A DNA stretch of 64,000 nt from Candidatus Spechtbacteria bacterium (GTDB lineage: Bacteria; Patescibacteriota; Minisyncoccia; Spechtbacterales; JACPHP01): positions 24,786 through 88,785 of the forward strand of contig JACPHP010000009.1 of assembly GCA_016188605.1 (NCBI GenBank). The letters are read 5' to 3'. The first letter of the stretch is position 1; each line of letters starts with the position of its first letter. Both the position numbers and the translations under genes were made by a program. The notes under the pieces were generated by a model, which saw only the letters and a program-made list of their open reading frames with translations, had not been told where the DNA came from and searched no databases. Shown piece after piece: positions 6,096 to 62,770 of this stretch.

Positions 6096-7079
6096 CTATT
6101 TTTCCCCTCTAATCACTTCATCGCAAACCTTTTGCACAAAATTTTGGATTGCTTTTTCGTCCTCCTCCACGCCTAGTTCAAATACTAAACGGTGACGAAG
6201 AATACGCAGAGCAACACCTTGAAGATCTGCTGGCGATACATAATTACGTGAATTAAGCGCGGCATGAACCCGCGCCGCCTCAACTAGCGCAATCGGTACA
6301 CGAGGAGAAGCGCCACCAAAATGGGCAATAATACCCTCTCCGCATTGATCTTGCTCCGGACGCGTTGCCTGTGCAATTCGCGCGGCAAGTTCATAGATAC
6401 GCCGTTCAGCATGAAGGGAACGAATAGTATCGCAAATTTCCAATACGGTTTGCGCGTCCATTACTTGGGAAATAGCGATGTCTTCTTGTTTTTGCGTAGA
6501 ATAGCGCCTAGCAATTTCTATCTCATCCTCAAGTGAAGGATATTGCACAAGAACTTTCATTAAAAATCTATCAAGCTCCGCTCTGCCCAGAGGATATGTG
6601 CCTTCTGCTTCAAGAGGATTTTGTGTAGCCATAACCATAAATGGTTGCGGCAATGCGAGTGTTTCTCCTCCCACCGTAACTTGCTGCTCCTGCATCGGCT
6701 CCAAAATCCTGCTCTTTGATTTTGTACTAGCGCGGTTAAGTTCATCACACAGAAAAAGATTGGTGAATACGGGCCCTCTTTCTACAAGTTTGGTACGTTG
6801 ATTTTCACTATCAAATACCTCCACGCCCACAATATCCCCGGGCAAAATGTCAGATGCAAACGAAACACGCCTGCAATCCAAAGACATTGCCCTTCCCAAG
6901 GTTTTTAGCAAAAGAGTCTTCCCAAGCCCCGGTGCGCCTTCAAGCAACACATGCCCGTTGCAAAACAAACATATAAGCACTGATTCTACCACATCATCCA
7001 TGCCAACAATAACCTTGCGAATCTCTTTCTGAAGCATGGATATTTCCCGCACCGCCTCACTAATTGTCATGACGCTCAT
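6096..7079 (-). CDS. moxR: MoxR-family AAA+ ATPase
   Basis: Walker A GAPGLGKT and Walker B region FLCDELNRAST. Length about 327 aa. First gene of the Bat-like operon. Confidence 0.8.
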   Translation of the reverse strand: MSVMTISEAVREISMLQKEIRKVIVGMDDVVESVLICLFCNGHVLLEGAPGLGKTLLLKTLGRAMSLDCRRVSFASDILPGDIVGVEVFDSENQRTKLVERGPVFTNLFLCDELNRASTKSKSRILEPMQEQQVTVGGETLALPQPFMVMATQNPLEAEGTYPLGRAELDRFLMKVLVQYPSLEDEIEIARRYSTQKQEDIAISQVMDAQTVLEICDTIRSLHAERRIYELAARIAQATRPEQDQCGEGIIAHFGGASPRVPIALVEAARVHAALNSRNYVSPADLQGVALRILRHRLVFELGVEEDEKAIQNFVQKVCDEVIRGEK

Positions 7080-7135
7080 TTTGTTCCTCGCTTTCTTTAT
7101 ATATTGTCAAAGTACGCTCGCCCCTCTCTTTTTAC

Positions 7136-7195
7136 AGAAAAAGGACAATTCCTCTGCACGAATTAATATCGCATGCAGAAAAATTGTCCTTTTAG
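7136..7195. terminator. Imperfect 18-bp-stem hairpin (aaaaggacaatt...aattgtcctttt) with T-runs on both strands
   Basis: Inverted repeat around the loop acgaattaatatcgcat. It lies downstream of the minus-strand Mur ligase gene and upstream of moxR. Candidate bidirectional intrinsic terminator. Confidence 0.35.
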
Positions 7196-7307
7196 GGATA
7201 GAGTCGGCGTTGCCTGCCATAATGGAAGCAGCTTGCCCTTTCCTTTCCGAAGGAATCGCGCATCATATTGTTACTTGAATGGTTTATCGTTTTTCGTACC
7301 ACAAAAC

Positions 7308-9593: not shown

Positions 9594-9796
9594 AGTGTGT
9601 GTAAAAAATTTTCAATTTTCAATGATCAATTTTCAATCAATGACCTAATGTCCTAATTTTCTCCGCCTGAGGCGGATCAGCCTATGGCTGAAAACACACG
9701 ATTAGAAATTGAAACATTGAAAATTTATTGCGTAGAGCAACGTGGTTGCCACGCAACTCTACGTTGTAAATTGAAAATTGATCATTGAAAATTCAG
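9594..9796. repeat. Palindromic intergenic element, 'ttttcaa' heptamer family, with a central double GC hairpin
   Basis: The left arm has degenerate 7-mer tandems (ttttcaa ttttcaa tgatcaa ttttcaa tcaatga). The centre at 9661-9695 holds ccgcc-tga-ggcgg plus tcagcc-tat-ggctga, and a nested hairpin cgtagag...gttgc-cac-gcaac...ctctacg. The right arm is the inverted array (attgaaaattgatcattgaaaatt). It belongs to the same family as 62630-62770. Confidence 0.6.
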
Positions 9797-19860: not shown

Positions 19861-20092
19861 AGCGAATATCTCAAAACGCAAATCTTAAATCGCAAAACTA
19901 CAACTCAAATCTAAAAACTACAAGAGGCTTATGGCGAAGATTTTAGATTTAAGATTTAGTAAAAGATTTTCCGCCCGAGGCGGATCAGCCTCTGGCTGAG
20001 AGTTTTACGATTTAGATTTAAGATTTGCCATTTGAGATTTGAGATAAATAATCGAATGTGAGACAATAATCTATTACACATCTAGCAACCCT
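19861..20092. repeat. Palindromic intergenic element, 'tctcaaa' heptamer family, with a short GC double hairpin at its centre
   Basis: Left arm of degenerate 7-mers (tctcaaa acgcaaa tcttaaa tcgcaaa actacaa ctcaaat...). Centre at 19955-19996: agtaaaagattttccgcccgaggcggatcagcctctggctgagag. The right arm is the inverted array (agatttaagatttgccatttgagatttgaga). Confidence 0.6.
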
Positions 20093-22382: not shown

Positions 22383-22888
22383 ATATATAGAGAGCACCCT
22401 CCTTCGCTCTGATAAGATCAGGGCTTCGAAAGGGTTGTTTTAATAAGTCCACAACCATGGACTTATTAAAACAAAAACCCCTCGACAAGCTCGGGGCAAG
22501 ACATCCACAAAGATGTAGGCAACTCCTGGCATGGGAACCGAGGATTTAGGATTTTTCCGAGGAACGCCTCAGTCGGAACCAAAACGCCCGGTGTCTAAGA
22601 AAAATCCCGTGTCTATCATAGGACAGACGTGTTGCCCACATCCTTATGGATGTATCGATACATGTTAGCAAATTAAGAACTATTTGTCAAGGAAGACGGA
22701 ATAACATATCATTATCTCAAAAATCAAATCGCAAATTGCAAATCTAAATCTCAAATCTTCAGCCCGAGGCTGATCCCCGCCAAAGGCGGGCAGGCGTCTC
22801 TGGCGGAAAAATACCGTAGTTTGTAGTTTCAAGATTTGAGTTGTAATTTTGAGTTTTGCGATTTCAGATTTGAGATTTAAATTTTACT
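22383..22888. other. Non-coding region of about 500 bp with several perfect hairpins; candidate structured ncRNA or leader that I could not identify
   Basis: No ORF of 60 aa or more. Hairpins tttaataagtcca-caacca-tggacttattaaa (about 22440-22475), acatcc-ttat-ggatgt and palindrome atgtatcgatacat (about 22650-22680). Mixed GC composition, unlike the AT-rich heptamer elements. The heptamer palindromic element occupies 22690-22888. Confidence 0.3.
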
Positions 22889-23986: not shown

Positions 23987-24057
23987 ATAGAGATATACAC
24001 ATCCCGCTTGCGGGATTCCGTAATTTTTCAATTTTCGCTTTTAATTTTTAATTAGGT

Positions 24058-28834: not shown

Positions 28835-29125
28835 TAAATTTATTTTGAAATTTTATTATCTTAAATCTCAAATGGCAAATCTCTCAGCCAGAGCAAGAAA
28901 TACAACAGAATGTATTTCTACGTTTAACAAAAATTACAACAAAATGTAATTTTACGCTAAGGCTGATCCCCGCCAGAGGCGGGCAGGCGCCTCGGGCGGA
29001 AAATCTTTTACTGAATCTAAAATTTCAAAATTTCTTCCGTAGATTTAAGATTTGAGTTTTAGTTTTGCGATTTTAGATTTGAGTTTTGAGATAACCATAA
29101 TTAATCTAAATATAACATAACGCCC
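28835..29125. repeat. Composite palindromic intergenic element; its inverted core (28875-29013) matches 24842-24980
   Basis: ctctcagccagagcaagaaatacaacagaatgtatttctacgtttaacaaaaattacaacaaaatgtaattttacgctaaggctgatccccgccagaggcgggcaggcgcctcgggcggaaaatcttttact is the reverse complement of the 24.8-kb core. Flanked by 'agatttgag' heptamer arrays. Confidence 0.7.
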
Positions 29126-35259: not shown

Positions 35260-35607
35260 ATGCCTACAAAGCGCCTTTTGGCGTTGCGCGGTTCGTATAA
35301 TATTCAAAATCTTTTCTCTAAAGGAAGGGTTATAAAAACACCACACTTCCTTATTAGGTATAAGGAAAAAAAAGATGATAGCGTGAGGGCGGGTGTTATT
35401 GTGACTAAAAAGATAGCTAAGAAAGCCGTTCAAAGAAATAAAATTAAGAGGCAGGTTCGCGAATGTCTTCGCAGTGTCGCGGATTTTTTTATTGGAGGAG
35501 TAGATGTTATTGTAATACCAAATTCAATAGATATGGAGTTTCAAGATATGAAAAACGAGATTATATTAGCTCTCAAAACAAGCAGACTTATTATTATAAA
35601 AGAATAG
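35260..35607 (+). CDS. rnpA: RNase P protein component
   Basis: 115 aa, basic. Position rpmH-rnpA. Motif KKAVQRNKIKRQVRE. Confidence 0.8.
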   Translation: MPTKRLLALRGSYNIQNLFSKGRVIKTPHFLIRYKEKKDDSVRAGVIVTKKIAKKAVQRNKIKRQVRECLRSVADFFIGGVDVIVIPNSIDMEFQDMKNEIILALKTSRLIIIKE

Positions 35608-43693: not shown

Positions 43694-46312
43694 TTAATTT
43701 ATGTTTTGTGCAAATGACTGGTAAGCTTGATATAGCGTATCCCAGTCACGATGGAATATGTGGTCCATTCCTCGGTCGCGATCACCGTCACCGTTATCAG
43801 TAGGTGTTGCCATAAATCCCCACTGACAGTAAAATCCTGTTCCTGCGGTAAAGGCTTTTTGCATGTCATCGCTGATATTTTGAGAACGGTCGTCATTTGG
43901 TCCCGCGTTAAAACCCGCCTCATCAAGTATATAGGGTTTATTTTGCTGTTGGGCAATCCATAAATCTTGATCATTAAATCCATTATAGGAGTGAGCGCCA
44001 ACGAAGTCGAAAGAATTATAAAGATCAAGCGCTTGATCTTGAGATAAGCCCGCCTGCTCTGTTTTTTCTAAACCTGTTCCTATCAAATGATATGGATCTT
44101 GTTTTCGTATTTCATCAGCCATATTTTTCATAAAGGCAACTAAATCTTCATTGTTTCCTCCCTGAAGAGTGTTGTTGCGCAACTCATTACCTACTTGCCA
44201 TGCAAATATGCCAGGATGCCTGCCGCCTCCTATTTGTTCTGTGATAAGGCGTACCCATGGCAGGTAGTTTTGTCTAAAACCTTGTTTAAACCACTGTGGA
44301 TTGAGCACCGCAGGTATGTTGGGCGAGCCATCAGATTGATAATACGCATCGTCTCCTGGTGGGGAAAAACCAGTTTGGAACCAATCGGTTAGTGCAACAA
44401 TAACTCGCATATCGTATTGATAATAGGCCTTATCGAGAAAAATTCGTACACGATCCACTGATTGTTGCGGAGTGAGAGAATTGTTCGCCCCAAACAGTCT
44501 TATGACTTTCACACCCATTGCTTTTGCAGCGGCAAGCTGGGTATCTTCTGTGCCACCCGCTTGTTGTACATATCCTACACCAGCGCCATAGTGCGCCAGT
44601 CCCCTATTGCTTATGCAGATACCTCGAAAAGGGGTTGTTCCCAGGACAAAATTTTTGCCATTACTACTAACCACTCCAGCGATAGGCGCCGACGAATTTC
44701 CTGGTGGTCTTCCATTCCCACCTCCACTCGACCCACCTCCTCCGGTGGTTCCTCCTCCCCCGGCCGCGCCTCCGCCAACTCCAAGCGCGCTTGCCCCGTC
44801 GCAAAAATAGAAATCTTCATTGCGGCAGGTTTGGGTATCTGTGCGCGTAGCTGTGTCGGGGCAGCAAAAGTCGCTGCTGCTACAGTAAACATTTTCGTGT
44901 ATCGCTGATTTTTTCTTTGTTTCGTTACAAGTGGTAAGCCAAAGGTTGTGAGGAGTAGCGGGGTCATAGTTTGCAATTGCAAGCACTCCCAGAGGATCAA
45001 TTTGTTCGGCAAGATACGCCAAGCTTGCTGTGGAGTTTGCGTCTGTGCCAAGCGCCTGAAGCCGGGCGCGAAAGGCGTTAAGCTGGGCAAGCTTCGCCCA
45101 TGTATCTGGTGAGCAGGATTTGTCGTAATTATTGTACGCGCCACCCTGCCTATTTTCGCAATTTCCAGCCGCCGTGCCAATACCCGCAGAACAGGTTGTG
45201 GACGAGGGGCATACAAACTGGGTGTTTGAACACGAGCACGCGTTGATGGCATTAGATATGGAATTGATATTATCAATAAGCGCCTGTTCTTTTTGTAATA
45301 ATTCCGGAATTTTTAGTGTCAGTCTTCTAAAAGTCGTATGGTCTGTGTTGCCGCAAAAATAATCAGTACTCTCAGCGCAGTCAGTGCAGTTTTTTGCCAA
45401 ATCAGAGAAAGGTACTGCCAGCGAATAATTTAATAGCTCGCCCGAAATAGTCACGCACGATTGAATTTGCGCACGTATTGGTTTAATCTCGTTATTCCAA
45501 AAAGTGCGAAGGTCGTTAAGAATATTAATTGTTTCTCCAAGCAATGTATTGGCTGTACCGCGAGCTGCGCATGGCTCCGGGCTTCCTCCAGATGACTGTG
45601 TGCAGGGATCTGCGACGCATGTAGACGGCGGCTGGCACTCCCAACCGCAAGAAGTGCAATCTTTCCCGCAAGACCTGCATATGTAAGCGCCCGGAGTATA
45701 GGGGGTGGGTGTTATCCCTTGGCACGCGCTTGCGGAACAGCCCGCGAGTCCATCTTTTACTTTGGTTACCAGACCGTTGTAGATTAGCCCATCCGGCAGA
45801 GAATTATACATATCTTGTATTAACACATCCGTGTTATCAAGCGCTTTCCCCAACGCGTATTTTGAAAATTGGCTGCCGGGAGCAATGGTATTGGGAATAT
45901 TAGGCGAAATTGTTGATACGGAAATATCAGGGAACGCCGGTGCTTCGCGAAAACCCAGGGTGGTCAGCTGAGGATTTATGAAATTTAAAAAAATTACCGC
46001 GCCAAGCAGCATCAGTATGCCTACGATAATGCTAATGATATGGTTACGAGCCGCAAGGCGTTTCAAGGGCGTTTGTCCGCTTGTGGCAAGCTGGAAACCG
46101 ATCATAATTATTCCCGCAACAGCCACTAAACTGCCTACGCCAAGCGATGCGTTAAAAATAATTTTAGTAATTTCGCCGATTGTAAGAGTATCTTTAATTG
46201 GTAAAAAGGAAGGATATGAAAGCTCCAGCGCTTGAGCTGGATGAACGACAAAAAGGCCGAAGATGAGCGCTGTGGCCAGGTAAGGCAATGCATCTATAAT
46301 TTTTTTAAGCAT
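43694..46312 (-). CDS. Large secreted pilin-like module / Cys-rich region / Gly-rich linker / C-terminal GH5-like (clan GH-A) glycoside hydrolase domain
   Basis: Signal ...HPAQA|LELSYPSF. Helices SLVAVAGIIMIGFQLATSG / IISIIVGILMLLGAVIFLNFINPQL. Many Cys residues; GGGAAGGGGTTGGGGSSGGGNG linker. C-terminal motifs FAWQVGNELRN (NE acid/base), VGAHSY (His-x-Tyr), ILDEAGF (nucleophile Glu) and QWGF (Trp) follow the GH5 order of conserved residues. Confidence 0.5.
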   Translation of the reverse strand: MLKKIIDALPYLATALIFGLFVVHPAQALELSYPSFLPIKDTLTIGEITKIIFNASLGVGSLVAVAGIIMIGFQLATSGQTPLKRLAARNHIISIIVGILMLLGAVIFLNFINPQLTTLGFREAPAFPDISVSTISPNIPNTIAPGSQFSKYALGKALDNTDVLIQDMYNSLPDGLIYNGLVTKVKDGLAGCSASACQGITPTPYTPGAYICRSCGKDCTSCGWECQPPSTCVADPCTQSSGGSPEPCAARGTANTLLGETINILNDLRTFWNNEIKPIRAQIQSCVTISGELLNYSLAVPFSDLAKNCTDCAESTDYFCGNTDHTTFRRLTLKIPELLQKEQALIDNINSISNAINACSCSNTQFVCPSSTTCSAGIGTAAGNCENRQGGAYNNYDKSCSPDTWAKLAQLNAFRARLQALGTDANSTASLAYLAEQIDPLGVLAIANYDPATPHNLWLTTCNETKKKSAIHENVYCSSSDFCCPDTATRTDTQTCRNEDFYFCDGASALGVGGGAAGGGGTTGGGGSSGGGNGRPPGNSSAPIAGVVSSNGKNFVLGTTPFRGICISNRGLAHYGAGVGYVQQAGGTEDTQLAAAKAMGVKVIRLFGANNSLTPQQSVDRVRIFLDKAYYQYDMRVIVALTDWFQTGFSPPGDDAYYQSDGSPNIPAVLNPQWFKQGFRQNYLPWVRLITEQIGGGRHPGIFAWQVGNELRNNTLQGGNNEDLVAFMKNMADEIRKQDPYHLIGTGLEKTEQAGLSQDQALDLYNSFDFVGAHSYNGFNDQDLWIAQQQNKPYILDEAGFNAGPNDDRSQNISDDMQKAFTAGTGFYCQWGFMATPTDNGDGDRDRGMDHIFHRDWDTLYQAYQSFAQNIN

Positions 46313-46667
46313 CGGCAGATTGCATTAAAAACATAATTACGTTTATTGTCCACAAAGGCAGCGTTGTTCCTACTAGTGGAACATATTCCGCTAGCATCAA
46401 TGGCGCGCGGCGTTTGAGAAACTTACTTAATCTTCCAGTTGTGTTTACTCCTCCCCCGCCTCGCGTGTACATCCACCCTCCTAAGACTATTGTAAATAAA
46501 ATATCTGGTATCCACGCGATGATTTCACCTATTCCAAAGAATATATTTAACGCGAGCAAAATAAATCCAATAAAATCAGCAAACATCGCGGTGGTCAACA
46601 TTAAAATTCCCTCGGGATTGAAGGGCGTTGGCCTGGAATGGCTGGATTGTTGGACTTCTTCGGGCAT
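46305..46667 (-). CDS. Small integral membrane protein (3 TM) downstream of the VirB4-like ATPase
   Basis: 120 aa with three hydrophobic helices. No motif. Overlaps the next gene by 8 bp. Confidence 0.4.
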   Translation of the reverse strand: MPEEVQQSSHSRPTPFNPEGILMLTTAMFADFIGFILLALNIFFGIGEIIAWIPDILFTIVLGGWMYTRGGGGVNTTGRLSKFLKRRAPLMLAEYVPLVGTTLPLWTINVIMFLMQSADA

Positions 46668-46821
46668 AGGACGGTACTTATCTCAAATCTCAAAACTCAA
46701 ATCGCAAAACTGAATCTCAAATCGTAAAACTACCGACCGAGTAAGATTTTAGTTTTGCGATGTAGTTTTGAGATTTACCATTTGAGATTTGAGATAATAT
46801 ATACTATTATCTCTGCACTTG
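46668..46821. repeat. Palindromic intergenic element, 'tctcaaa' heptamer family, inside the T4SS-like cluster
   Basis: Left arm tctcaaa tctcaaa actcaaa tcgcaaa actgaat ctcaaat cgtaaaa. The right arm is inverted (ttttgcgatgtagttttgagatttaccatttgagatttgaga). No GC hairpin at the centre. Confidence 0.6.
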
Positions 46822-48639
46822 CTATTGTGCAACTTCTTCTGCGGGTTCATTTTCCAACTCCTCCCTCGCTTTTTCTATCTGCAATAATTGCACCGGGTCA
46901 GATGTAATTATTTGGTCTTCAGTGTAAGAGGCAATAACCTTAATTGCCACATGTTTTGTGCCTGCAAAGAAGAGTCCCTCCCCCACCGCGCCCTCAAGCA
47001 GTAAGTATTTTTCTTCATCCGTGAGGTGAAAGGTATTTTGCACAACATCGATAGAGGCGGGCGACTGCTTTAGCAAAAGCTGTAGTGATGAGTTAGTCAC
47101 AATGGGTTTACCGTAATTAGACACCATAAAATCGCTAACATCTTGGCTGATAGTAGTAAGCCCCATGTAGTATTTGCGGCAGCGCTTGGCGATGGCATAA
47201 AGAAACGCCGCGCTATTTTCGTGTTGCATCATCCACCACGCCTCGTCAATAATTAACACGCGTTTTTTGAGAGTTCGGCGAATTGTGTCCCAAATGTAGT
47301 GCAGAATGAGAAACATGGCGACGGGGCGAAGTTCGTCTTCCATGTCGCGGATATTAAATACCACAAGCTGGCTATCAAGATTTATATTCGTCGGCTGGTT
47401 CAAGAATCCAGCGTAAATTCCTTCCACATACGGTTGTAGGCGCAGAGCAAGCGATTCCGCTCCCTCAATATTTTGTAACACCGTATAAAGATCACCCATG
47501 CGCGGCGGTACTATTCCTTCAAAATTTTCTCTTTCTGGAGTTATGTCACGCGAGGCGTATGTTTGGGTTATTGCTTGATCGAGCAAGGATTCTTCTTCTG
47601 GTGTCATGGTTCCTAGCATAACTTTCACCAGGCCCATTAGGGTTACGACGGTACTGCGCAGCACATCAGACGCATTTTCATCGGTACCAACCGGTGGCAG
47701 GTCAAAAGGATTAATATGATGTTCGGACGTTAGCGAGAGTTTGAAAAACGACCCGCCGACAGTTTCTGCAAGATATTGGTATTCGTTTTCAGGGTCAATT
47801 ACCAGTACGTCGTCGCCAAACATTAAGGAGCGCAATATTTCTAGCTTAATAGCATAGCTTTTTCCAGCACCAGATTTTCCAAAAACTACAGCGTTGGCGT
47901 TCTCCAAAGAGAATCTATCAAAAAGAATTAAACTGGAGTTGTGGCGATTAATGCCATACAATATACCCTTGTCTGCCGTTAAATCAAAAGAAACAAAGGG
48001 AAATATTGATGAAAGCGGGCTGGTATTTAAGCTGCTATATATAAGAAGCTCATCAAACAGAACCGGCAGAGAGGAATTGAATCCAGCTGTTTGCTGATAA
48101 AGAGCGGGTTTCATGTACACCATGCGGCTTTCAAGCACCGCGCGAACCTCAGACTCTATCTGCTCAAGTCCTTTTTCTGAAGTGGCATAAATAGTAATGT
48201 ATAAGCCAAACTTAAACATTTTTTCTTCCGCTTGTTGAAGCTTATCGCGCAGTTCTTCAATATTTTGGTAGGCGGCATCAAGGATAGGGTCGCGTATCAG
48301 GCCTTTTTCCGAACGCTCCATCAGGTCTGCTTCAACCGAAGTAATCTGCCGCTCAAGGGTTTTTAATATCTGTTCTGTGGACAATGGGTGGATAAACATT
48401 GAAACATCCACTGCATTACCCATGTTTATTATCGGCGAGAACCAGTTAGTGGTTAAAAAACGAGGATAGCTGAATACAAAAAGCGTTCTCGCGTAGCTGT
48501 CGCCGAGTTTTATGAAAGAGGCGTTAATTTCAAGCGCGGCAGGCGCTATAATATCGCGCAGAGTTTGCAGTTGCTGTTTGTTAGCCTCTGGGCTCTGCGC
48601 AAGCGCGTTTTCAAATTGTTGATTGGTATCTTTTGGCAT
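46822..48639 (-). CDS. VirB4/TraC/CagE-family ATPase, C-terminal (P-loop) portion; it appears to be the second half of a split VirB4
   Basis: Walker A VVFGKSGAGKSYA and the VirB4-typical Walker B LIIDEAWWMM (DEAW). Central VirB4-like region ...FVFSYPRFLTTNWFSPIINMGNAVDVSMFIHP... At 605 aa it is about 200 aa short of a typical VirB4. Confidence 0.7.
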   Translation of the reverse strand: MPKDTNQQFENALAQSPEANKQQLQTLRDIIAPAALEINASFIKLGDSYARTLFVFSYPRFLTTNWFSPIINMGNAVDVSMFIHPLSTEQILKTLERQITSVEADLMERSEKGLIRDPILDAAYQNIEELRDKLQQAEEKMFKFGLYITIYATSEKGLEQIESEVRAVLESRMVYMKPALYQQTAGFNSSLPVLFDELLIYSSLNTSPLSSIFPFVSFDLTADKGILYGINRHNSSLILFDRFSLENANAVVFGKSGAGKSYAIKLEILRSLMFGDDVLVIDPENEYQYLAETVGGSFFKLSLTSEHHINPFDLPPVGTDENASDVLRSTVVTLMGLVKVMLGTMTPEEESLLDQAITQTYASRDITPERENFEGIVPPRMGDLYTVLQNIEGAESLALRLQPYVEGIYAGFLNQPTNINLDSQLVVFNIRDMEDELRPVAMFLILHYIWDTIRRTLKKRVLIIDEAWWMMQHENSAAFLYAIAKRCRKYYMGLTTISQDVSDFMVSNYGKPIVTNSSLQLLLKQSPASIDVVQNTFHLTDEEKYLLLEGAVGEGLFFAGTKHVAIKVIASYTEDQIITSDPVQLLQIEKAREELENEPAEEVAQ

Positions 48640-48815
48640 GAGTTATATTCAAATTAACCTCATCTAACAGTTTAGGTGTTTTTTGGTTAGTAAAATAGTA
48701 TCTCAGATCTCAAATCGTAAATCTCAAAACTGAAATTTAAATCTCAAAACTACACGTGAAGATTTTAGATTTGAGTTGTAGATTTGAGATTTAAGATTTG
48801 AGTTTTGAGATAACT
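48640..48815. repeat. Palindromic intergenic element, 'tctcaaa' heptamer family, separating the two VirB4 halves
   Basis: Left arm tctcagatctcaaatcgtaaatctcaaaactgaaatttaaatctcaaaactac. Centre cacgtg. The right arm is inverted (agattttagatttgagttgtagatttgagatttaagatttgagttttgaga). Confidence 0.6.
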
Positions 48816-49481
48816 TTATTCTGGTGCGGTATAACTTTCTTCAAGAGGTTTCATCATAGCGCGTTTTTTAAGGCCTTGTGGGTTATATAGATTCCAGAAA
48901 AGGACAATCAGCTCTTCTGTTTCAAGTTGTTTGGTAAGTAAGCCCATGCGATGAAGACCAGCCGCGACAAAATCTAGGCGTTGTTCAAGCTGTGTGCGGT
49001 AATGAGCAAATTGTTGTTCCTTTAATTCTTCGCCCCCGCCGCCAATACCGAACATTCCCAGCAATCCCTTCCCTCCCCCGCTGGTTATAGCACCTTGCTC
49101 AAAAGGGTTTAGAGGAGCTACGACAAAAAAATCAGTGGAGACAATATTTGTGGTTTCAACAAATTCTTTTATAAACTTGCGATACTCTTGTGTCTGTATG
49201 CGTAAAAGGTCGTTATTTTGACGGGATTCAAGATCGGCAAGCGTGGCGATATATTCATCAATATTTAAGAATCGCGAATTGATGAATATCTGTATGTCAA
49301 AATCAAGTGAATTCAGAAAGCTTTGAAACGCGAAGATAATCGCGTCTTGCTCTTCCTGCGATTTTAACGCGAAGTTGATGCTGGACACGCGAAGCACGCC
49401 GCGCATTCCCCCGCCCTTGAGGATGAGGACGCCATCGCGGATTGCGTCAATACGGACAAAGTTTTGAGTGGAGAAAGCCAT
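48816..49481 (-). CDS. VirB4 N-terminal-domain-like protein (CagE_TrbE_VirB-type); candidate first half of the split VirB4
   Basis: MAFSTQNFVRIDAIRDGVLILKGGGMRGVLRVSSINFALKSQEEQDAIIFAFQSFLNSLDFDIQIFINSRFLNIDEY follows the VirB4 N-domain pattern as I recall it. 221 + 605 aa gives 826 aa, a typical Gram-positive VirB4 length. Confidence 0.5.
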   Translation of the reverse strand: MAFSTQNFVRIDAIRDGVLILKGGGMRGVLRVSSINFALKSQEEQDAIIFAFQSFLNSLDFDIQIFINSRFLNIDEYIATLADLESRQNNDLLRIQTQEYRKFIKEFVETTNIVSTDFFVVAPLNPFEQGAITSGGGKGLLGMFGIGGGGEELKEQQFAHYRTQLEQRLDFVAAGLHRMGLLTKQLETEELIVLFWNLYNPQGLKKRAMMKPLEESYTAPE

Positions 49482-49602
49482 AACAATTTAAATTACAAAG
49501 TCCAAATTACAAATGTCAAAGTAATGTCAAAGTTTAAAGTTTTGACATTTGGCATTTAGTCATTTGAAATTGATTTGTAATTTGACATTTGGATTTTGAA
49601 AT
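49482..49602. repeat. Palindromic intergenic element, 'tttgacattt' word family
   Basis: aaattacaaagtccaaattacaaatgtcaaagtaatgtcaaagtttaaag | ttttgacatttggcatttagtcatttgaaattgatttgtaatttgacatttgg. The arms are inverted repeats of each other. Confidence 0.6.
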
Positions 49603-50004
49603 TTATTTTTTGTCTATCCTCTGTGCCAACTGTTGTATCTGTTCTCGAGTAACCGAAGCACCCGGCCGAGCAAACTGACCCACCTCTTTTTTGATCTTAG
49701 TCGGTGTTTCCGCTTGTTTTTGCGGCGCTCTAGTCCATACGTATACGCGCGGCGAGACAGTAAAGGTAAGGAAATTCATGAAAAAATCAGCAAAGGGTTT
49801 CTCGTTTACGCGTACAAAAGCAAGCACAAGAGTCACGATTGAAATAATTATCGCGACAGGGAAGAAAAGAAAAGACTCTAGTATAAAATATAGGCCGACA
49901 ATAACCGCGCCCGCCCCGACAACCGTTAGTGTTTGGGGCAAGGTGAGCGATGCGAGAATTTTCTCCTCAAGATCAATGAATTTTGGGACTTGGAATTGCT
50001 GCAT
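49603..50004 (-). CDS. VirB3-like small two-TM membrane protein (PrgI/TcpE-like position upstream of VirB4)
   Basis: 133 aa with two adjacent TM helices (TLTVVGAGAVIVGLYFILESFLFFPVAIIISIVTLVLAFVRV). It directly precedes the VirB4 N-domain gene. Assignment by topology and position only. Confidence 0.4.
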   Translation of the reverse strand: MQQFQVPKFIDLEEKILASLTLPQTLTVVGAGAVIVGLYFILESFLFFPVAIIISIVTLVLAFVRVNEKPFADFFMNFLTFTVSPRVYVWTRAPQKQAETPTKIKKEVGQFARPGASVTREQIQQLAQRIDKK

Positions 50005-50006: not shown

Positions 50007-50366
50007 TTAAGATTGAGTACCCACGTCTTCTTCGGCGGCGCGGGGTATGTTATGAGTCTTCCTAAGATAGTCGCCAATTTTTACAAAAAGTTTATCGCGA
50101 ACCTCGTATGCTAATTGTCTAGCAGTAGTTTCAGGAAGTCCAAGCTCTACCTGAAGAGTTTCGCGATATTTCTGGACAGGAATTAAACCCATAATTACAT
50201 AATCGGTTATTTGCGAGAAGGTATAAACTTTATCTGGTATGTTGTATTCTCGCACTAGATAAAAAAATAGATCTGTTAGATTCTCATCCCAAAGTAAATC
50301 CTTAACTTCATCTGGAAGGTCTCTATATTGCAGCCAAAATTGTTCTTGAGAATAATTGGTAAGCAT
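50007..50366 (-). CDS. Hypothetical soluble protein in the T4SS-like cluster
   Basis: 119 aa with no TM segment and no recognisable motif. 3 bp from the downstream gene. Confidence 0.4.
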   Translation of the reverse strand: MLTNYSQEQFWLQYRDLPDEVKDLLWDENLTDLFFYLVREYNIPDKVYTFSQITDYVIMGLIPVQKYRETLQVELGLPETTARQLAYEVRDKLFVKIGDYLRKTHNIPRAAEEDVGTQS

Positions 50367-50378: not shown

Positions 50379-52862
50379 TTACGTTCCTCTCTTATTGTAT
50401 ATTTGTTGAAGTATCTTAATATAAGCCGCTCGTCGTGCTGGCGAAGGTTCATCTTGTATAGCATCGTTTACAGCCTTTCGATATCGTTCAAGATTTTCCG
50501 GCGTTTCGTTAAGATTGTACGTGGCTTCAGTCTGTTCTACTTGCGCGCGTAAACGATTTTGTTGTTCTTCTAACTCGGCCTTGTACTGTTCTTTTTGTGC
50601 TTGCTCCGCTTCTTTTTTAGCCGCTTCTGCTTTGGTGACAAAATTAGCGTTTTTACCACTCTCTGATGTAGGCGGAGTTGGCGCAGGCGTTGGCTTAGAA
50701 ACAAAATCTCCCTCTGGTGTTCTTGTAATATTATGTTGCTCCATTATTCTATCAAGGTCTTCCTGGCTCATAGATTCACCAGTAGTAGCCGTTGGTAGTG
50801 GAGGAGGTGTTTGTACTGAAGGGGGAGTTTGAACTGGAGTAGCGGCCGTAGGTTTTGGAGAGCTTGGTGGTGTAGGCGGCGGAGTTGGCGCGGGTGTTGG
50901 ACCAGATGGTGGTTGTTGCCATGGAGGAACAATAGTTCCAGGTTGGCTTGCGCCTCCTGCTCCAGGAGTTGCGCCGGGCGTTCCTTCACCCGCAGTCGTG
51001 CCACCACTCCCCGGAGTTGGTATATACATATTAGGTATTCTCGGGTCGATTTGTTGCGCCTGGAAAGTTGCTGTAAATTGAGCAAACTTTTTATTTTCAT
51101 TATTAAACTTCAGAAGCGCCGCAGGGTCGTTATATATTTTAATAAGCTGATCAACCACCGCATCCATAACATCCGGGTTATAGTTATCATGAATGTTTCT
51201 TAAATGCGTTGCTTGAATACCCCATACCCAATCTGCCACATTATTCTTTATTTCATCAGGAGAGATTTTATCTGGATCAAACCTGCCAGGAGTAGGGATT
51301 TTGTTTACTTTTTTCGGCGCCATTCCTCTAGCAAGACCAGCACCCATAGCCGCGCCAGCTGGACCTAGGCCAGCTAATTGTTTTTGTGCAAATGGCACAG
51401 ATCCCTTAACCGCTTCCCCTGCTTTTTTCTTGCCAGCCGTGTATCCCGCCTTGGCTTGAGATTTAACATATTTGCCAGCCGTCGTAGCGCCAGGAACTTG
51501 ACCTAATACACTACCAACTTTTCCTGCTACCGTGCTAGCCTTTGTTTTAGCGCCAGCATAAGCCCCCCCAATTTTTTGACCTACAGGAGTGCCGGCAATT
51601 CTGGTTTTTGCCGCGCGATAGCCCGTGCGGCCAACACCAACAGTAGCTCGGCCAGTTTTCTTTCCCATCCAAGTACCTGCCGCAGTTCCCCATTTTGTGC
51701 CATTGCTGACGATAAGCTTTGATCCTACCGCGCTAAATGAGAAGCTGATCATGAACCCGACGAACAGTGTGCCGATTGCAAACAGTAGCATGATGGCATT
51801 GCACATATTGGCATTCTGCAAAATGGTGAGGCCAGTTCCAGTCGTCGCATCATACGCTGTAATTGTATTGTATGATCCAGTAATGCCAGAGGGATTAGTA
51901 AAGGAAAAGTTAGTACACAGCGCGTTTCCTGATGCAATGAATCTCGCCGCCAGCCAGTAGAATAGTCCCAGTGGAATGGGTAATATTGCCCACTGGAAAA
52001 AATTACCCCACCATTGGCTAAAGTATTTTCTTGTTTCAGGAAGAATATATGCTACAAACGCAAGCGGTGAGATGATAACCAGAATCCACACAGCAAGAAT
52101 TCGTATGAGTATGAGCAGAGACATTGCTACAAACGCGGCTATTGAAAGAATATGGAAAATCACATCAACCAAAGCTTGGGCGAATACTCCAAACGCGACG
52201 CCGACGTCACCGGTAAATATTGTTTTAAGAGCCGTTAGCCATATTGAGCCAAGTGTGCTGAACGCGGGCAAGAAAAGCTTCCATCCCCCGCCAGCTCCAC
52301 CAGCATCAAAAAATATTTTTGTAAGAATGTTTGTGACATCTATAATAAAGCCAGTTATTACGGGTGTGAAGTTAATGAGTAGCGCAATTCCAATAAAGGG
52401 TATTAAAAGTTTTCGCCATCGTTCCGTTCCCAATTCCAGTATTGTGCTAACCGCAATTGCAATTAGCACAAACACAAGTCCTATATTTGCCAGATCGCGC
52501 ATCACGCCCCACGCGATTGTAATAACAGTGTTCGCAGCCGCCGGGTTTGCGGGGGTGTAGGGGACGGCAAGAGAAAAATTAATTATTGCGTCCATCACAG
52601 CGCCCATAATAATTGCAAAAACGGTAAGTATCGTACTGATGATGACAAGAATGGTTGTTACGATTGCAACAAGTAACGCAGTGAGGCGAGATGCAAAGAA
52701 CCCAACTATAGCATCGTAGAATGCATCTCCAATAACATTGGCAGAAGCTATGTGGGTTGGCATCAACAGACCAATAGAAACTAAACAAAACAAGGATAAC
52801 AAAATTACCGCAGTGCTTTGTGTGGAATGCTTGGTGAAAAATTTCACTATAGATTTCATCAC
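50379..52862 (-). CDS. VirB6/TrbL-like polytopic membrane protein with a long Pro/Thr-rich and coiled-coil C-terminal extension
   Basis: Signal/TM N-terminus and about 8 TM helices. Segment VIISPLAFVAYILPETRKYFSQWWGNFFQWAILPI resembles the TrbL/VirB6 core (PF04610-like). C-terminus PTPAPTPPPTPPSSPKP... then a charged helical region. First gene of the cluster. Confidence 0.45.
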   Translation of the reverse strand: MMKSIVKFFTKHSTQSTAVILLSLFCLVSIGLLMPTHIASANVIGDAFYDAIVGFFASRLTALLVAIVTTILVIISTILTVFAIIMGAVMDAIINFSLAVPYTPANPAAANTVITIAWGVMRDLANIGLVFVLIAIAVSTILELGTERWRKLLIPFIGIALLINFTPVITGFIIDVTNILTKIFFDAGGAGGGWKLFLPAFSTLGSIWLTALKTIFTGDVGVAFGVFAQALVDVIFHILSIAAFVAMSLLILIRILAVWILVIISPLAFVAYILPETRKYFSQWWGNFFQWAILPIPLGLFYWLAARFIASGNALCTNFSFTNPSGITGSYNTITAYDATTGTGLTILQNANMCNAIMLLFAIGTLFVGFMISFSFSAVGSKLIVSNGTKWGTAAGTWMGKKTGRATVGVGRTGYRAAKTRIAGTPVGQKIGGAYAGAKTKASTVAGKVGSVLGQVPGATTAGKYVKSQAKAGYTAGKKKAGEAVKGSVPFAQKQLAGLGPAGAAMGAGLARGMAPKKVNKIPTPGRFDPDKISPDEIKNNVADWVWGIQATHLRNIHDNYNPDVMDAVVDQLIKIYNDPAALLKFNNENKKFAQFTATFQAQQIDPRIPNMYIPTPGSGGTTAGEGTPGATPGAGGASQPGTIVPPWQQPPSGPTPAPTPPPTPPSSPKPTAATPVQTPPSVQTPPPLPTATTGESMSQEDLDRIMEQHNITRTPEGDFVSKPTPAPTPPTSESGKNANFVTKAEAAKKEAEQAQKEQYKAELEEQQNRLRAQVEQTEATYNLNETPENLERYRKAVNDAIQDEPSPARRAAYIKILQQIYNKRGT

Positions 52863-52894: not shown

Positions 52895-53785
52895 TTACAG
52901 TGGATATCTATTGACGAGAGTTTTCCACTCGTTAAGCGATAATGTTTCGGGACGGCGAGTTTGTTCAATATCGTTTTGAGCAAGCCATATCGTTATTTTT
53001 TCTTTTGGCAGGCCGAGCCCTTGCGATAAGGTTTTTTGTAGCTGTTGGCGCGGGTGTGCAAACCCAGCTTTGGCGATTTTGAAGAACAACGGAATATCTT
53101 TTTCTGCTATGACTGGGCTAGGATAGACATCCACAACTAATAATGCGGAATCAACTGTAGGTTGCGGCCAAAAAGCGCCCTTGGAAACTATGCGTACAAT
53201 AGTAGGGTTGCCATATAATTGCACGGAAAGAGCCAAAAGATTCATCCCGTTAGAGGTAGAGCGGCGCTGTGAGCCCTCGCGACCTCTAACGGGATTCATG
53301 TCTGGGGTCTTTGCGCAAATCTTCTGCGCTACTTCTTTTTGGATAATAACAGCGATTCGACTTGGGCGAATCGGCTCTTCATCAAGGAATTTACGGAATA
53401 GACGGGCTGTTAAATAATAAGGAGGCGTTCCGACGAGTTTGTAGTCCTGTATTCTGTATTCCGTATTCTGTATTCTCAGTGCGTCGCCCTCGATAATTTC
53501 TATATTCTTATAGTTTGCCGTTTGCTCGCGCAGAATAGGAATTAATGCGCGATCTTTTTCAATTGTCACGACGCGGCCAACGTATTTTGCTATTTCTGTC
53601 GTAACCGTGCCTAGTCCGCCGCCTATCTCAAGCACTGTATCGTTTTTATCTAGCTGTGCCGCGGCGATTAGAGCGTTAAGAATATCTTGATTAACCAAAA
53701 AATTCTGCCCAAGCCGCTTGTTTGGCATTAAAATATCATGTTGCAGGTAGATTTCTTTGATTTCAGAGGGCGTTAGCATAAGCAA
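52895..53785 (-). CDS. rsmA: 16S rRNA (adenine1518/1519-N6)-dimethyltransferase KsgA/RsmA
   Basis: GQNFLVNQDILNALIAAA, SAM motif VLEIGGGLGTVT. Contains an in-frame heptamer array (53446-53479) encoding RIQNTEYRIQDYK. Confidence 0.85.
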   Translation of the reverse strand: MLMLTPSEIKEIYLQHDILMPNKRLGQNFLVNQDILNALIAAAQLDKNDTVLEIGGGLGTVTTEIAKYVGRVVTIEKDRALIPILREQTANYKNIEIIEGDALRIQNTEYRIQDYKLVGTPPYYLTARLFRKFLDEEPIRPSRIAVIIQKEVAQKICAKTPDMNPVRGREGSQRRSTSNGMNLLALSVQLYGNPTIVRIVSKGAFWPQPTVDSALLVVDVYPSPVIAEKDIPLFFKIAKAGFAHPRQQLQKTLSQGLGLPKEKITIWLAQNDIEQTRRPETLSLNEWKTLVNRYPL

Positions 53786-53870
53786 TCAACGAATAACGAA
53801 TCCTGTGCGAATATACGAATACTCCACTGTAGTCAATTCGTTTATTCGTAACGGATTCGTTATTCGTTGA
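53786..53870. repeat. MITE-like palindromic element with 18-bp terminal inverted repeats tcaacgaataacgaatcc / ggattcgttattcgttga
   Basis: It lies exactly between the uvrD-like stop (53883) and the ksgA start (53785). A second copy with the same termini is at 60933-61015. The interior is made of cgaata/tattcg heptamer-like words. Confidence 0.65.
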
Positions 53871-53882
53871 TGATTAAGATTG

Positions 53883-57366: not shown

Positions 57367-57598
57367 GAGGTTTTTGCTCCATAAACTTGGCCGCAAAAGC
57401 GGCCGGGGTAGTTGTGGTGACCTCAGTTTTTTGCCCGAGACGACTTCATATGCTTATGAAGTCGGTGAGAAATATTTGGCGTCGCCACAACGGTACCTTG
57501 GTGTTAATATTTTATGGAGCAAAAAACCCCTTAAGATAGAACAGAATACAGAATACAGAATACAGAATACAGAATACAGAATACAGAATACCAACTGT
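57339..57598. repeat. Composite repeat region. A 27-bp direct repeat (57339-57365 / 57512-57538) duplicates the 3' end of the M23 gene. Internal hairpins, then a (acagaat)x7 heptamer array at 57541-57589.
   Basis: DR ttatggagcaaaaaaccccttaagata occurs twice, 173 bp apart. The first copy is followed by its own inverted copy (ggtttttgctccataaa), forming a hairpin. Further hairpins ggccgc-aaaa-gcggcc and cgacttcata-tgct-tatgaagtcg. The heptamer array matches the one inside ksgA. Confidence 0.7.
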
Positions 57599-59509: not shown

Positions 59510-59950
59510 AATATTTATTGTACGCAAAGAGAATAAAAATACAATAGAACAGAGAACAGAGAACCATGAGCAATAACAAATGAAAAGCCACTCGTATGTT
59601 ACGGGTGGCACGGATGAAAGAACAGATATATAAGAAATTTCTCAGAGATGCAGGAGATCCCCTTGCACATAGTGTTGGGTTCGTGCATCTCTGAGAGAAA
59701 GAGTCTTTTTCGTTTCCTCTTAAAGCGAAATGACTTTATTGGTTTGCCAATTGGGGGTATGTCCCCGATTCGTCGGACAAGAGGTCAGAACAACCTGCGT
59801 CCAATGAGCAAACCAATTGAAACAAAGAACTGTTACATATACATAATAACATTTATAATAATTTACATCAAGCACCAGTTATCCACAGGGTGAATCTCTA
59901 GTACGTAGTGAGTAGTCCGCGCGTCTTCGGCGCGTTATTCTACTCACTAC

Positions 59951-60922: not shown

Positions 60923-60932
60923 CTAATAATCA

Positions 60933-61015
60933 TCAACGAATAACGAATCCACTACAAATAAACGAATTAACTGGTCGAGTATTCGTAAATTCGTACACGA
61001 TTCGTTATTCGTTGA
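60933..61015. repeat. Second copy of the MITE-like element with tcaacgaataacgaatcc / cgattcgttattcgttga termini
   Basis: It lies exactly between the stop of the 537-aa gene (61016) and the start of the NTase gene (60922). The interior resembles an inverted version of the interior of the 53786-53870 copy. Confidence 0.65.
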
Positions 61016-62629
61016 TTATTTACCCACCAACTGGTCAAGCGCAAAATACGCGGAGTTTTTAGATGTGGCAATGAGCAGATAATCGTTAACTAGCGCGTAA
61101 TTTAACCCCGTGGGGGAAATGGGCATATTGTTGTAGCGAACAATAATTCCAGCAGGATAGCTAATAGAAAAACCAGTGTAATTTGCTGTTTTCCAGCCCG
61201 TTGTTTGATCAAAAAGCGGAGAACCTAGAATAATAGGCATAAATAGCTGAACCAGGTTTTGTTCTTGATCGGAAATTGTATTTTGTACGGCAGTTTCGTG
61301 CGCGGGTAAAATCTTGAATATAATGCCAAGGCGCGACGAATAGCAGGAGATGTCAAAATTATTTATTTCCGTACATTTATTCTTTTCTTCCTCGCCAGGC
61401 GTATATATATAAAGCATGGGCGCGGGATCAAGAGAGTCTATAAGCGTTTGCGGGAGCTGGACATTGAGCAAGCTAAGAAGCTCTTTTGTTTGCAAGTAAG
61501 AATTATCTGTTAATTTTTTAATTGGCAAATAGGTTATTGTTTTAGGCGAGTTGATTGAATGTTCTAATGCGCGTAATTGTTCTACCAAAAACGACTCATT
61601 TCCTTTTTGTAATTCAATAATTTGTTGTGGTGTTTGGAAGAATGGACTGGGTGTTGCGGGTGCAACGGGGGTGGACGGAGCGCTCGGCGCGGCAGGCGCG
61701 GAGGGTTGCAAATAGACTCTCCAGTAAACAAATCCTCCGATTCCGCTGCCAACAATTAGTATACCGAGTAAAATTGCTACAAACTGCAAGATATTCGCGC
61801 GTCTTTTAGGAATTTCTTCGTATAATTGAGCTTCTGTTTGCGGAAATTTTCTTGTCGGCGACAATGGGGGAGCAGTAATCGGTCTTTGCGGCATTGTCAA
61901 TTGTGGCGACTGAGGCAGTGGTTTTTCTTGTAAGCGCATTGGCGTTGAAGACAATCCTAAAATTTCTTCAGGTGTTTTTAGCCCCCCCTCTTTACTAGGA
62001 ATAATTTGTCTTATCGGTCTTGTTTCTTTTTCTATACTAGGTAGGTTGGGCGGCGGAGCGGCAGTGAGGGGTTGTGGGCGAAGTGGGGGCGGAGGTAGCG
62101 CGGACGGGGGTGTTGGCGTAACAATAGGCCTTGTCGCTGTGGGTAAGGGCAAGGGTTTTTCTGCCGCAACTGAAACCGTTGGAGGTATTGCGCGTTCTTT
62201 TAAGATTTGTTCAAGCTCCTCTTCTTCTACAGGAATAAAATTTTTAGGAAGCTGAGTGGAAGGTGTTGCTGGTTTTGTCGGTGCCTGTGGACGCAAAGCA
62301 AGCTCGCCCAATTTAGGTTCACCTAGTTTTGGTTCATCTAGTTTTGGTGCGGGCTGATGCGTGTTTTGAGTTGGCTTGACTGGTATGGGTGGCGCGGGCA
62401 TAAAAGGCCTCTGTGGCGCAGGTCGTATTGGCACAGAAGGTTTTGCTGGTGATATTTGTGAAATCGGAGCAGATGGTTTTTTGAGTTGTTCCAACACACC
62501 TTCTTTTTTGTAGGGCTCTATGCCAGTAGGCAGGGGTTGTTTGAGCTGCCCTTGTTGTTTGCGTCGTGAGTCCTCAATGTCTTGAGACATTGTATGGATT
62601 CTACCGAGTGAAGACACGCTAGTGGGCAT
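61016..62629 (-). CDS. Proline-rich single-pass membrane protein with a C-terminal globular domain (hypothetical)
   Basis: About 270 aa Pro-rich, with repeats DEPKLGEPKLGEL, then TM segment ILQFVAILLGILIVGSGIGGFVYW, then a domain of about 230 aa. No motif recognised. Confidence 0.4.
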   Translation of the reverse strand: MPTSVSSLGRIHTMSQDIEDSRRKQQGQLKQPLPTGIEPYKKEGVLEQLKKPSAPISQISPAKPSVPIRPAPQRPFMPAPPIPVKPTQNTHQPAPKLDEPKLGEPKLGELALRPQAPTKPATPSTQLPKNFIPVEEEELEQILKERAIPPTVSVAAEKPLPLPTATRPIVTPTPPSALPPPPLRPQPLTAAPPPNLPSIEKETRPIRQIIPSKEGGLKTPEEILGLSSTPMRLQEKPLPQSPQLTMPQRPITAPPLSPTRKFPQTEAQLYEEIPKRRANILQFVAILLGILIVGSGIGGFVYWRVYLQPSAPAAPSAPSTPVAPATPSPFFQTPQQIIELQKGNESFLVEQLRALEHSINSPKTITYLPIKKLTDNSYLQTKELLSLLNVQLPQTLIDSLDPAPMLYIYTPGEEEKNKCTEINNFDISCYSSRLGIIFKILPAHETAVQNTISDQEQNLVQLFMPIILGSPLFDQTTGWKTANYTGFSISYPAGIIVRYNNMPISPTGLNYALVNDYLLIATSKNSAYFALDQLVGK

Positions 62630-62770
62630 AGTCTAAAATTTCCAATGATCAATTTACAATTTTCAATGAATTAACAAACTCAATTTTAATACGTATTGCG
62701 TATTTGGAAATTAGGTCATTTAGTCATTGATTGTGAATTGAAAATTGGTGCTTGAAAATTAGTTTTGTTT
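62630..62770. repeat. Palindromic intergenic element, 'ttttcaa' heptamer family (same family as 9594-9796)
   Basis: aaatttccaatgatcaatttacaattttcaatgaattaac ... tagtcattgattgtgaattgaaaattggtgcttgaaaattag, with centre acgtattgcgtat. Confidence 0.6.

Follow-up and report, generated by a model that had tools for sequence, protein, structure and literature searches.

How is a VirB4 ATPase to be read when its two halves appear as separate open reading frames (ORFs) with a palindrome between them? The question is raised by a type IV secretion system (T4SS) cluster in a 64,000-nucleotide (nt) stretch of DNA from Candidatus Spechtbacteria (Patescibacteria), referred to here as the window; L-numbers denote the loci compared with the window locus. 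An earlier note on this DNA had described a 221-amino-acid (aa) ORF resembling the N-terminal domain of VirB4, a 605-aa ORF carrying the ATPase motifs and a heptamer palindrome separating them, and had put forward a natural two-subunit VirB4, a gene disrupted by the repeat (a pseudogene or a phase-variable gene) and an assembly artefact as possible explanations. Our analysis favors the first of these. The two ORFs are best understood as conserved subunits, not gene fragments, and the hairpin in the spacer as a later insertion of secondary importance, a reading to which we assign a probability of roughly 0.85. Both ORFs were found where the note had placed them, on the minus strand, and the region reads as follows, 5' to 3' along the cluster:

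48816-49481, minus strand: TrsD-like or 'TraC-like' protein, 221 aa, homologous to the N-terminal ~140-200 residues of VirB4 but encoded on its own
48699-48812, no strand assigned: heptamer palindrome (TCTCAAA / TTTGAGA) immediately 3' of the trsD stop, with 57-nt arms, 81% complementary, and no loop
48640-48698, minus strand: non-palindromic A/T-rich leader of 59 nt, 5' of the virB4 ATG and without a Shine-Dalgarno motif
46822-48639, minus strand: short-form VirB4 ATPase, 605 aa, comprising the remaining, PF03135-like part of the VirB4 N-terminal region and the P-loop C-terminal domain

The 605-aa protein bears the expected Walker A (GKSGAGKS, aa 254-261) and Walker B/DEAW (VLIIDEAW, aa 461-468) motifs, and it matches both P-loop_TraG (9e-28) and the VirB4 C-terminal domain of PDB entry 4ag5 (5e-44). 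It scores 373.1 bits against a cutoff of 325 on the NCBIfam model NF045971 (conju_CD1110), with aa 19-566 corresponding to positions 179-734 only of the 752 in the model. On R388 TrwK it aligns to residues 288-736, TrwK residue 288 falling at ORF residue 107, and in BLASTP against a fused 777-aa VirB4 from Monoglobus (located by tblastn of plasmids, preceded by a PrgI gene and used here as reference) its aa 21-564 cover residues 203-753 (9e-65). A weak match to CagE_TrbE_VirB pairs aa 121-192 with profile positions 122-196 of 204. By the TrwK, CD1110 and fused-VirB4 alignments, the first ~180-200 residues of the VirB4 N-terminal region are absent from this polypeptide, which aligns only from about position 179-203 onward and is, as had been proposed, about 200 aa short of canonical VirB4. 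The gene context is that of a VirB4, with a PrgI match (6.3e-10) and a weak TrbL/VirB6 match encoded 5' of it and the same gene order in relatives.

Homology of the 221-aa ORF to the N-terminal ~140-200 residues of full-length VirB4 is evident from its sequence, its profile and its predicted fold. Its aa 6-116 match positions 2-114 of the 752-position CD1110 model (1.3e-5), its aa 5-110 match positions 104-216 of VirB4_plasma, the 894-position mycoplasma VirB4 model (4e-9), and in BLASTP its aa 6-125 align with residues 23-142 of the fused 777-aa VirB4 (4e-9). When a family profile of 37 sequences was compared with VirB4 by hhalign, the N-terminal stretch was matched with a probability of 88.6%. 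A PDB search by sequence, whether with the single ORF or with the 37-sequence profile, gave no meaningful match, and a search by fold was called for instead. The AlphaFold model of the protein has a mean pLDDT (predicted local distance difference test) of 76.7, and each of the top 14 Foldseek matches to it in the PDB is a TrwK/VirB4 chain from the R388 system, at probabilities of 0.94-1.0, the next match having a probability of 0.25. Template modeling (TM) scores for the TrwK matches range from 0.31 to 0.51 (0.44-0.51 for the best-superposed chains). In the regions aligned to VirB4, nothing corresponds to a Gly-rich loop at aa 131-150 that is modeled with low confidence. NCBIfam, BLASTP, hhalign and Foldseek are four independent lines that concur in the resemblance first proposed, and the outcome that the earlier note had named in advance as speaking against it, a 221-aa ORF unlike VirB4 N-domains beside a 605-aa ORF aligning end to end with VirB4, is not what we find. 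Together the two ORFs amount to 826 aa, close to the length of canonical VirB4, with which they are colinear. From the alignment starts and ends of both ORFs, it follows that the break lies not inside a conserved domain but at a domain boundary, around residue 180-200 of canonical VirB4, between the TraC-like (PF26593) and PF03135 regions.

The smaller protein belongs to a large family with a gene of its own. A search at E <= 1e-3 yielded 1604 homologues, of which the 120 best all measure 132-250 aa, and precomputed tables list PF26593 (TraC-like) for the 221-aa protein and for all of these best 120 of 1604; the 100% match is a protein from a metagenome-assembled genome of Candidatus Spechtbacteria. 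The alignment of 37 family members, at 41-67% identity, contains 21 invariant columns, and the protein has its own start and stop. The layout itself was surveyed in 87 loci, made up of 80 kept from 593 encoding stretches found in species-representative genomes, five relatives with examined neighborhoods and two re-assemblies of the window locus. In every one (87/87) trsD and virB4 are separate ORFs, with no fusion, and the gap between them is mostly -4 to +25 nt. All five examined neighborhoods present PrgI, then a TraC-like gene (216-232 aa) and then VirB4 (593-624 aa); the gap is 1-42 nt in L003, L004, L006 and L007, and 10 nt in L091, which is among the closest relatives examined (64% identity). 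A PrgI gene 5' of the TrsD-like gene is found both in relatives and in Bacillota plasmids. The latter show the two layouts, each after PrgI: a split pair, as in a Brevibacillus plasmid (PrgI, a 332-aa TrsD-like protein and a 635-aa ATPase) and a Halobacillus plasmid (an annotated TrsD of 345 aa followed by a 622-aa ATPase), and the fused 777-aa VirB4. The split is therefore ancient and functional, being common to all the Patescibacteria loci examined and to pGO1-type Bacillota systems. Colinear homology and two genes in each of the 87 loci bear out the natural two-subunit VirB4 that had been offered as one option.

The two-gene architecture of TrsD plus short VirB4 is not new, having already been published. 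According to a 2025 paper (PMC12102498), TrsD is the most abundant T4SS component of Patescibacteria, with 2272 homologues there, 1664 of them adjoining virB4; it is remotely homologous to the N-terminal portion of VirB4 and is essential, as a separate gene, in Ca. S. epibionticum, a cultured relative. Two loci show other arrangements. L037 carries a 1.7-kb insert (5652-7326) between trsD and virB4 with two ORFs (356 and 193 aa), of which the longer bears the NPPF motif that typifies N6-adenine methyltransferases. In L041 the ORF after trsD that matches virB4 is 791 aa long.

The spacer between the two window genes (48640-48815) is exactly 176 nt long and does hold the heptamer palindrome described earlier, the palindrome proper occupying 48699-48812. 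Each frame of the spacer contains 3-7 stop codons and the flanking ORFs are in different frames, so read-through from trsD into virB4 is impossible. Folded as sense-strand RNA, the 114-nt hairpin reaches -39.7 kcal/mol (z = -4.5, none of 200 shuffles being as stable), and as DNA it also stands apart from shuffles (z = -5.3). The leader that follows lacks a Shine-Dalgarno motif, which is normal here, given that only 9 of the 57 predicted genes in the window have such a motif and that these cluster in one operon (1692-7079). The contention that VirB4 is split by the palindrome does not hold, because the genes are separate in 87/87 loci and most junctions lack such an element. The hairpin is instead a lineage-specific arrival, inserted or grown at an existing gene boundary whose usual width is -4 to +25 nt. 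Similar elements do lie, as had been noted, in the adjoining spacers at 49482-49602 (121 nt) and 46668-46821 (154 nt):

49489-49605, no strand assigned: heptamer palindrome of the PrgI/TrsD spacer, built on another heptamer (TGTCAAA/TTACAAA), with 43-nt arms, 79% complementary, and a lag-7 identity of 0.57
46678-46797, no strand assigned: heptamer palindrome (TCTCAAA type) of the spacer 3' of virB4, with 54-nt arms, 78% complementary, and a lag-7 identity of 0.50

Inspection by eye revealed no target-site duplication at 46678-46797 or 48699-48812.

In functional terms, the short VirB4 is probably bound by TrsD and tied through it to PrgI/VirB3 at the membrane, TrsD supplying in trans the membrane-proximal, VirB3-facing part of the ATPase. 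The analogy is with R388, where the covalently joined N-terminus of TrwK has this role and structures 7o41 and 8rtb pair TrwM/VirB3 with TrwK/VirB4. The heptamer element would be selfish or neutral and tolerated because it sits between genes. The suggestion in the earlier note that such palindromes are intercistronic processing modules is plausible by analogy with the rRNA intervening sequences cut by RNase III. In a polycistronic RNA its stem would be a probable substrate for RNase III, and a cut there would separate the trsD and virB4 messages, translation of virB4 then presumably starting on the A/U-rich leader without a Shine-Dalgarno motif.

The element at this junction is one of many. 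Under a strict threshold the window holds 8 arrays of period 7, none of periods 4-6 or 8-12, and none in shuffled sequence. Period-7 arrays extend over the whole window, mostly as inverted pairs that form long hairpins and with several heptamer units; outside the spacers already described they lie at:

7501-7537, 7705-7786, 8081-8113, 9606-9638/9760-9795 and 19868-20045: period-7 arrays
22714-22887, 24021-24053, 28858-29092, 53443-53480 and 53785-53871: period-7 arrays
57532-57598, 59536-59574, 60928-61020 and 62630-62770: period-7 arrays

The heptamer family varies by site (TCTCAAA, TGTCAAA, TTTTCAA, ACGAATA, ACAGAAT), and elements occupy both co-directional and divergent spacers (the latter at 19882-20092 and 28835-29125) as well as the interior of coding genes for a Mur ligase and KsgA. 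In the Mur ligase gene (7308-8690, minus strand) three heptamer arrays fall within the coding sequence and the match to Mur_ligase_C is broken into two stretches, a pattern suggestive of repeats inserted in frame. In ksgA (52895-53785, minus strand) a palindrome at 53224-53315, with 41-nt arms, is in frame and adds an 18-aa insert (DMN|PVRGREGSQRRSTSNGMN|LL) absent from four orthologues, and a CTGTATT array (53443-53480) coincides with a variable loop that in L005 contains a 37-aa insert. In a convergent spacer (57541-57591) lies a perfect (ACAGAAT) x 7.3 array; the reverse-complement unit, CTGTATT, is the ksgA repeat 4 kb away, and the same unit is also found in the trsD-virB4 gap of L051. 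Four larger composite elements contain, between their heptamer arms, a GC-rich double mini-hairpin core, CAGCCnnnGGCTGATCC(CC)GCCnnnGGCGG:

9669-9690, minus strand: GC-rich core
19977-19998, minus strand: GC-rich core
22760-22781, plus strand: GC-rich core
~28880-29010: apparently interrupted copy of the core

The core is matched 3 times in the window against a chance expectation of 0; it is missing from 90 other loci and is hence lineage-specific. Period-7 arrays were detected in 25 of 85 other Patescibacteria loci. Heptamer palindromes or arrays of unrelated sequence stand at the trsD/virB4 boundary in L029, L042, L046, L051, L068 and L092, and heptamer palindromes lie between T4SS genes of other Patescibacteria, for example in L082, L068 and L092.

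At four of the compared loci, heptamer arms at the same junction pair around a gene. The gene encodes a PF05635 '23S rRNA intervening-sequence protein' in L005 (7652-8076), L008 (5652-6126) and L066 (4315-4756), and a PDDEXK_3 protein in L016 (3105-3549). Across the 85 loci, 22 such cassette genes (18 PF05635, 4 PDDEXK_3) lie between T4SS genes, the 18 besides the junction four being in L016-L079, and all 22 point in the direction of the T4SS operon. Period-7 flanks accompany 15 of the 22, as against 5 of 400 random segments. The association extends to a metagenomic set of 71 unrelated PF05635 loci (L093-L172, GC 33-63%), of which 48 have a period-7 array in a flank, 32 have one in both flanks and 42 have significantly pairing flanks. 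A fixed arm polarity, with the A-rich arm first, was rejected, as the arms of the L008 cassette show the reverse composition. Such an architecture is known from the Coxiella 23S rRNA intervening sequence, where an S23p ORF of the PF05635 family is enclosed by a 28-bp terminal stem with tandem heptamers (GACAGAT), present in different numbers in different strains, and where RNase III cuts in the stem (PMC4990558).

It is possible, although we hold this only tentatively, that heptamer-stem palindromes, with or without a PF05635/PDDEXK_3 gene in the loop, form a single mobile class akin to 23S rRNA intervening sequences. Such a class would settle operon boundaries and permissive protein loops in Patescibacteria and other phyla and be cut out of the transcript by RNase III. 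Its ends or footprints would account for the intergenic heptanucleotide repeats, long unexplained, that are known from cyanobacteria, Beggiatoaceae, Bacteroidetes and Geobacter. The class would depend on transcription by its host, given that all cassettes seen run in the same direction as the operon. No link between heptamer-stem palindromes, PF05635/PDDEXK_3 cassettes, intervening sequences and insertion at T4SS boundaries was found in the searchable literature.

Several results weigh against the reading of two conserved subunits with a secondary insertion between them. The Foldseek E-values for the 221-aa model are modest (2e-3 to 3e-2, at TM 0.45-0.51). The NCBIfam TrsD/TraD model NF041427 awards this ORF 19.8 bits against a cutoff of 200 (E 5.7e-4), and on this score the protein is a distant relative of the staphylococcal TrsD subfamily, not a member of it. 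A local Pfam search returns no match for it even at E = 10, whereas the precomputed tables list PF26593. Turning to the elements, sense RNA is more stable than antisense in only 3 of the 8 co-directional ones, and hence there is no signature of selection on the RNA hairpin. Finally, the window palindromes contain neither a cassette ORF nor a remnant detectable by jackhmmer or tblastn; they look like ORF-less relatives of the intervening-sequence class, a kinship therefore read on their architecture only.

Among the competing explanations, the one that fares best regards the three palindromes as selected regulators of the T4SS operon, whether as terminators or attenuators, as mRNA-stabilizing hairpins or as RNase III sites setting the PrgI:TrsD:VirB4 ratio. 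The palindromes do occupy exactly three consecutive gene boundaries, form highly stable hairpins and typically end one arm 5-15 nt 5' of the next start codon; heptamer palindromes recur between the T4SS genes of L082, L068 and L092, and the analogous Coxiella stem is cut by RNase III (PMC4990558). We nonetheless consider a selected regulatory role unlikely. The elements have no U-tract and no GC-rich stem, terminator and promoter matches do not rise above those in shuffled sequence, and no bias towards sense-strand stability is apparent. Intrinsic termination in particular was discarded, with 12 terminator-like sites in the region against 11.3 expected and none of them at the palindromes. Heptamer sequence and presence are moreover erratic among close relatives, the 10-nt gap of L091 being a case in point, and the presence of such elements in divergent spacers, and also within the genes for the Mur ligase and KsgA, speaks against a cluster-specific role.

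A second proposal, which we consider very unlikely, takes the heptad arrays as binding sites for a protein reading one heptad per subunit. The omega ribbon-helix-helix repressor/ParB of Inc18 plasmids is an analogue for such a reading, and cold-shock proteins acting on single strands are another candidate. The strict 7-nt periodicity and the combination of direct and inverted heptads are in keeping with it, and CspB is known to bind heptamer direct repeats with one protein per heptamer (PMC4679880). Against it, a single genome has different heptamers at different sites (TCTCAAA, TGTCAAA, ACGAATA, TTTTCAA, ACAGAAT), making a single sequence-specific binder unlikely, and no candidate binder gene was identified. 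A TIGR-Tas array was also considered, as these occur in Patescibacteria without sequence conservation. TIGR arrays have units of ~36 nt with box C/D motifs and two spacers and adjoin a Tas gene with a Nop domain (PMC12045711); the 7-nt unit, the motifs and the T4SS neighbors rule out such an array here.

That the palindrome broke a continuous virB4, leaving a pseudogene or an on/off switch governed by repeat number, we judge highly improbable. The suggestion draws on the combined 826 aa and their colinearity with VirB4, on the slippage-prone nature of heptamer arrays as simple repeats (PMC4679880) and on the difference in heptamer copy number between Coxiella strains (PMC4990558). It is opposed by the separate genes in all 87 loci, most of which have no element between them and none of which is fused, and by a 221-aa protein with its own start and stop, 1604 homologues and 21 invariant columns in 37 sequences. 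The repeats moreover lie outside both coding regions and the spacer has 3-7 stops per frame, so that changes in the number of heptamer units cannot restore a fusion, and TrsD is reportedly essential as a separate gene (PMC12102498). An artefact such as a palindrome-induced misjoin is extremely unlikely: palindromes do break assemblies (L001 and L002 end at 49518, and L092 ends in a heptamer array), but the two-gene layout is universal among relatives and the Logan assemblies SRR12113419 and SRR12113428, from different runs and a different assembler, equal the window with 0 mismatches over 10,703 and 3,540 nt, reproducing both the 176-nt trsD-virB4 spacer and the 154-nt one. The contig ends are an observation in their own right. 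The independent short-read contigs L001 and L002 (window position 49518, within the PrgI/TrsD palindrome) and L092 (at its end, 1609) all stop inside heptamer elements, which makes such elements assembly breakpoints in Patescibacteria metagenomes.

With the two subunits taken as the preferred reading, the remainder of the T4SS cluster can be laid out around them. It is compact, lies on the minus strand of the window and is chromosomal and monoderm-type (MPF-FATA-like). In 5' to 3' order along the cluster, the following genes precede trsD and follow virB4:

50379-52862, minus strand: polytopic membrane protein of the VirB6/TrbL type, 827 aa, at the head of the cluster, with a weak Pfam TrbL match (E 4.7e-4)
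50007-50366, minus strand: 119-aa protein without a family match; a small ORF has the same position in L004 and L005
49603-50004, minus strand: PrgI/VirB3-like small membrane protein, 133 aa, with a Pfam PrgI match above cutoff (6.3e-10)
46305-46667, minus strand: predicted membrane protein, 120 aa, 3' of virB4, without a family match
43694-46312, minus strand: 872-aa protein with a T4SS_pilin N-terminus (0.0028) and a Cellulase/GH5-like C-terminal domain (0.0052), both weak Pfam matches below cutoff

Relatives have PF19590 (TrbL_3) at the position orthologous to the VirB6-like gene, and an ORF of 134-182 aa follows virB4 in five of them (L003-L005, L007 and L091 excluded as truncated). The middle part of the 872-aa protein is Cys-rich; judging from its weak domain matches, the protein could be a cell-wall-degrading substitute for VirB1 joined to a pilin-like anchor. 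Patescibacteria T4SS clusters have been placed near ksgA and rnpA (PMC12102498), and likewise the window holds both genes along with the cluster:

52895-53785, minus strand: KsgA
35260-35607: RnpA

An Rfam search at gathering threshold and a tRNA scan returned nothing for the window, and no rRNA was found in it.

The practical consequence is that TrsD and the short VirB4 deserve proper annotation, as such genes are usually labeled 'hypothetical'. More broadly, VirB3, VirB4-N and VirB4-C emerge as modules that occur all separate, as in the window, or with VirB4-N and VirB4-C fused, and a VirB3-VirB4 fusion has also been reported in the literature. The heptamer-stem elements are of greater interest than the VirB4 split. 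Besides being common in these tiny genomes, they turn up repeatedly at the boundaries of T4SS genes, interrupt assemblies and are linked by their architecture to PF05635 cassettes. Were RNase III to process their stems, they would shape operon expression in Patescibacteria, and they might explain heptanucleotide repeats in other phyla.

Set against known systems, the gene pair finds its closest parallels in TrsD and the short VirB4 TrsE of the pGO1/pSK41-type MPF-FATA group and in the TrsD-VirB4 pairs of other Patescibacteria (PMC12102498). In all of them a homologue of VirB4-N lies directly 5' of a VirB4 of ~600-635 aa and after a PrgI/VirB3-like gene, and the Patescibacteria pairs share with the window a cluster near ksgA and rnpA. 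In contrast to these systems, the window genes do not abut but lie 176 nt apart with a hairpin between them, and the Bacillota TrsD-like proteins (332-345 aa) are longer than the 221 aa seen here. Full-length VirB4, as represented by R388 TrwK (7o41/8rtb) and the CD1110 family of Clostridia, is covered colinearly by TrsD and the 605-aa ORF, and the predicted TrsD fold matches TrwK chains only; the difference is that what is one polypeptide there is two in the window.

The palindromes invite three comparisons. With the 23S rRNA intervening sequences of Coxiella and Leptospira they share long terminal inverted repeats that form a stem and tandem heptamers in the arms, and relatives of the window locus have a PF05635 ORF in the loop at the same trsD/virB4 junction; they differ in lying between or inside protein-coding genes instead of 23S rRNA helices, in having no ORF in the window copies and in their longer stems (43-57-nt arms). 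The heptanucleotide repeats known as STRR (short tandemly repeated repetitive sequences) or long simple sequence repeats, from cyanobacteria, Beggiatoaceae, Bacteroidetes and Geobacter, are likewise intergenic 7-nt tandem units, often just 5' of start codons, and paired inverted sets are reported in Geobacter. Nonetheless, those repeats are mostly direct arrays with one dominant heptamer per genome, whereas the window has inverted pairs of several families. Lastly, repetitive extragenic palindromes and their mosaic elements (REP/BIME) and palindromes of the miniature inverted-repeat transposable element (MITE) type resemble the window elements in being dispersed, extragenic, hairpin-forming and ORF-less, and could serve in mRNA processing or stability. 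The window elements stand apart from them in that their arms are tandem heptamers, their copies do not make up one alignable family and, at 46678-46797 and 48699-48812, no target-site duplication is visible by eye.

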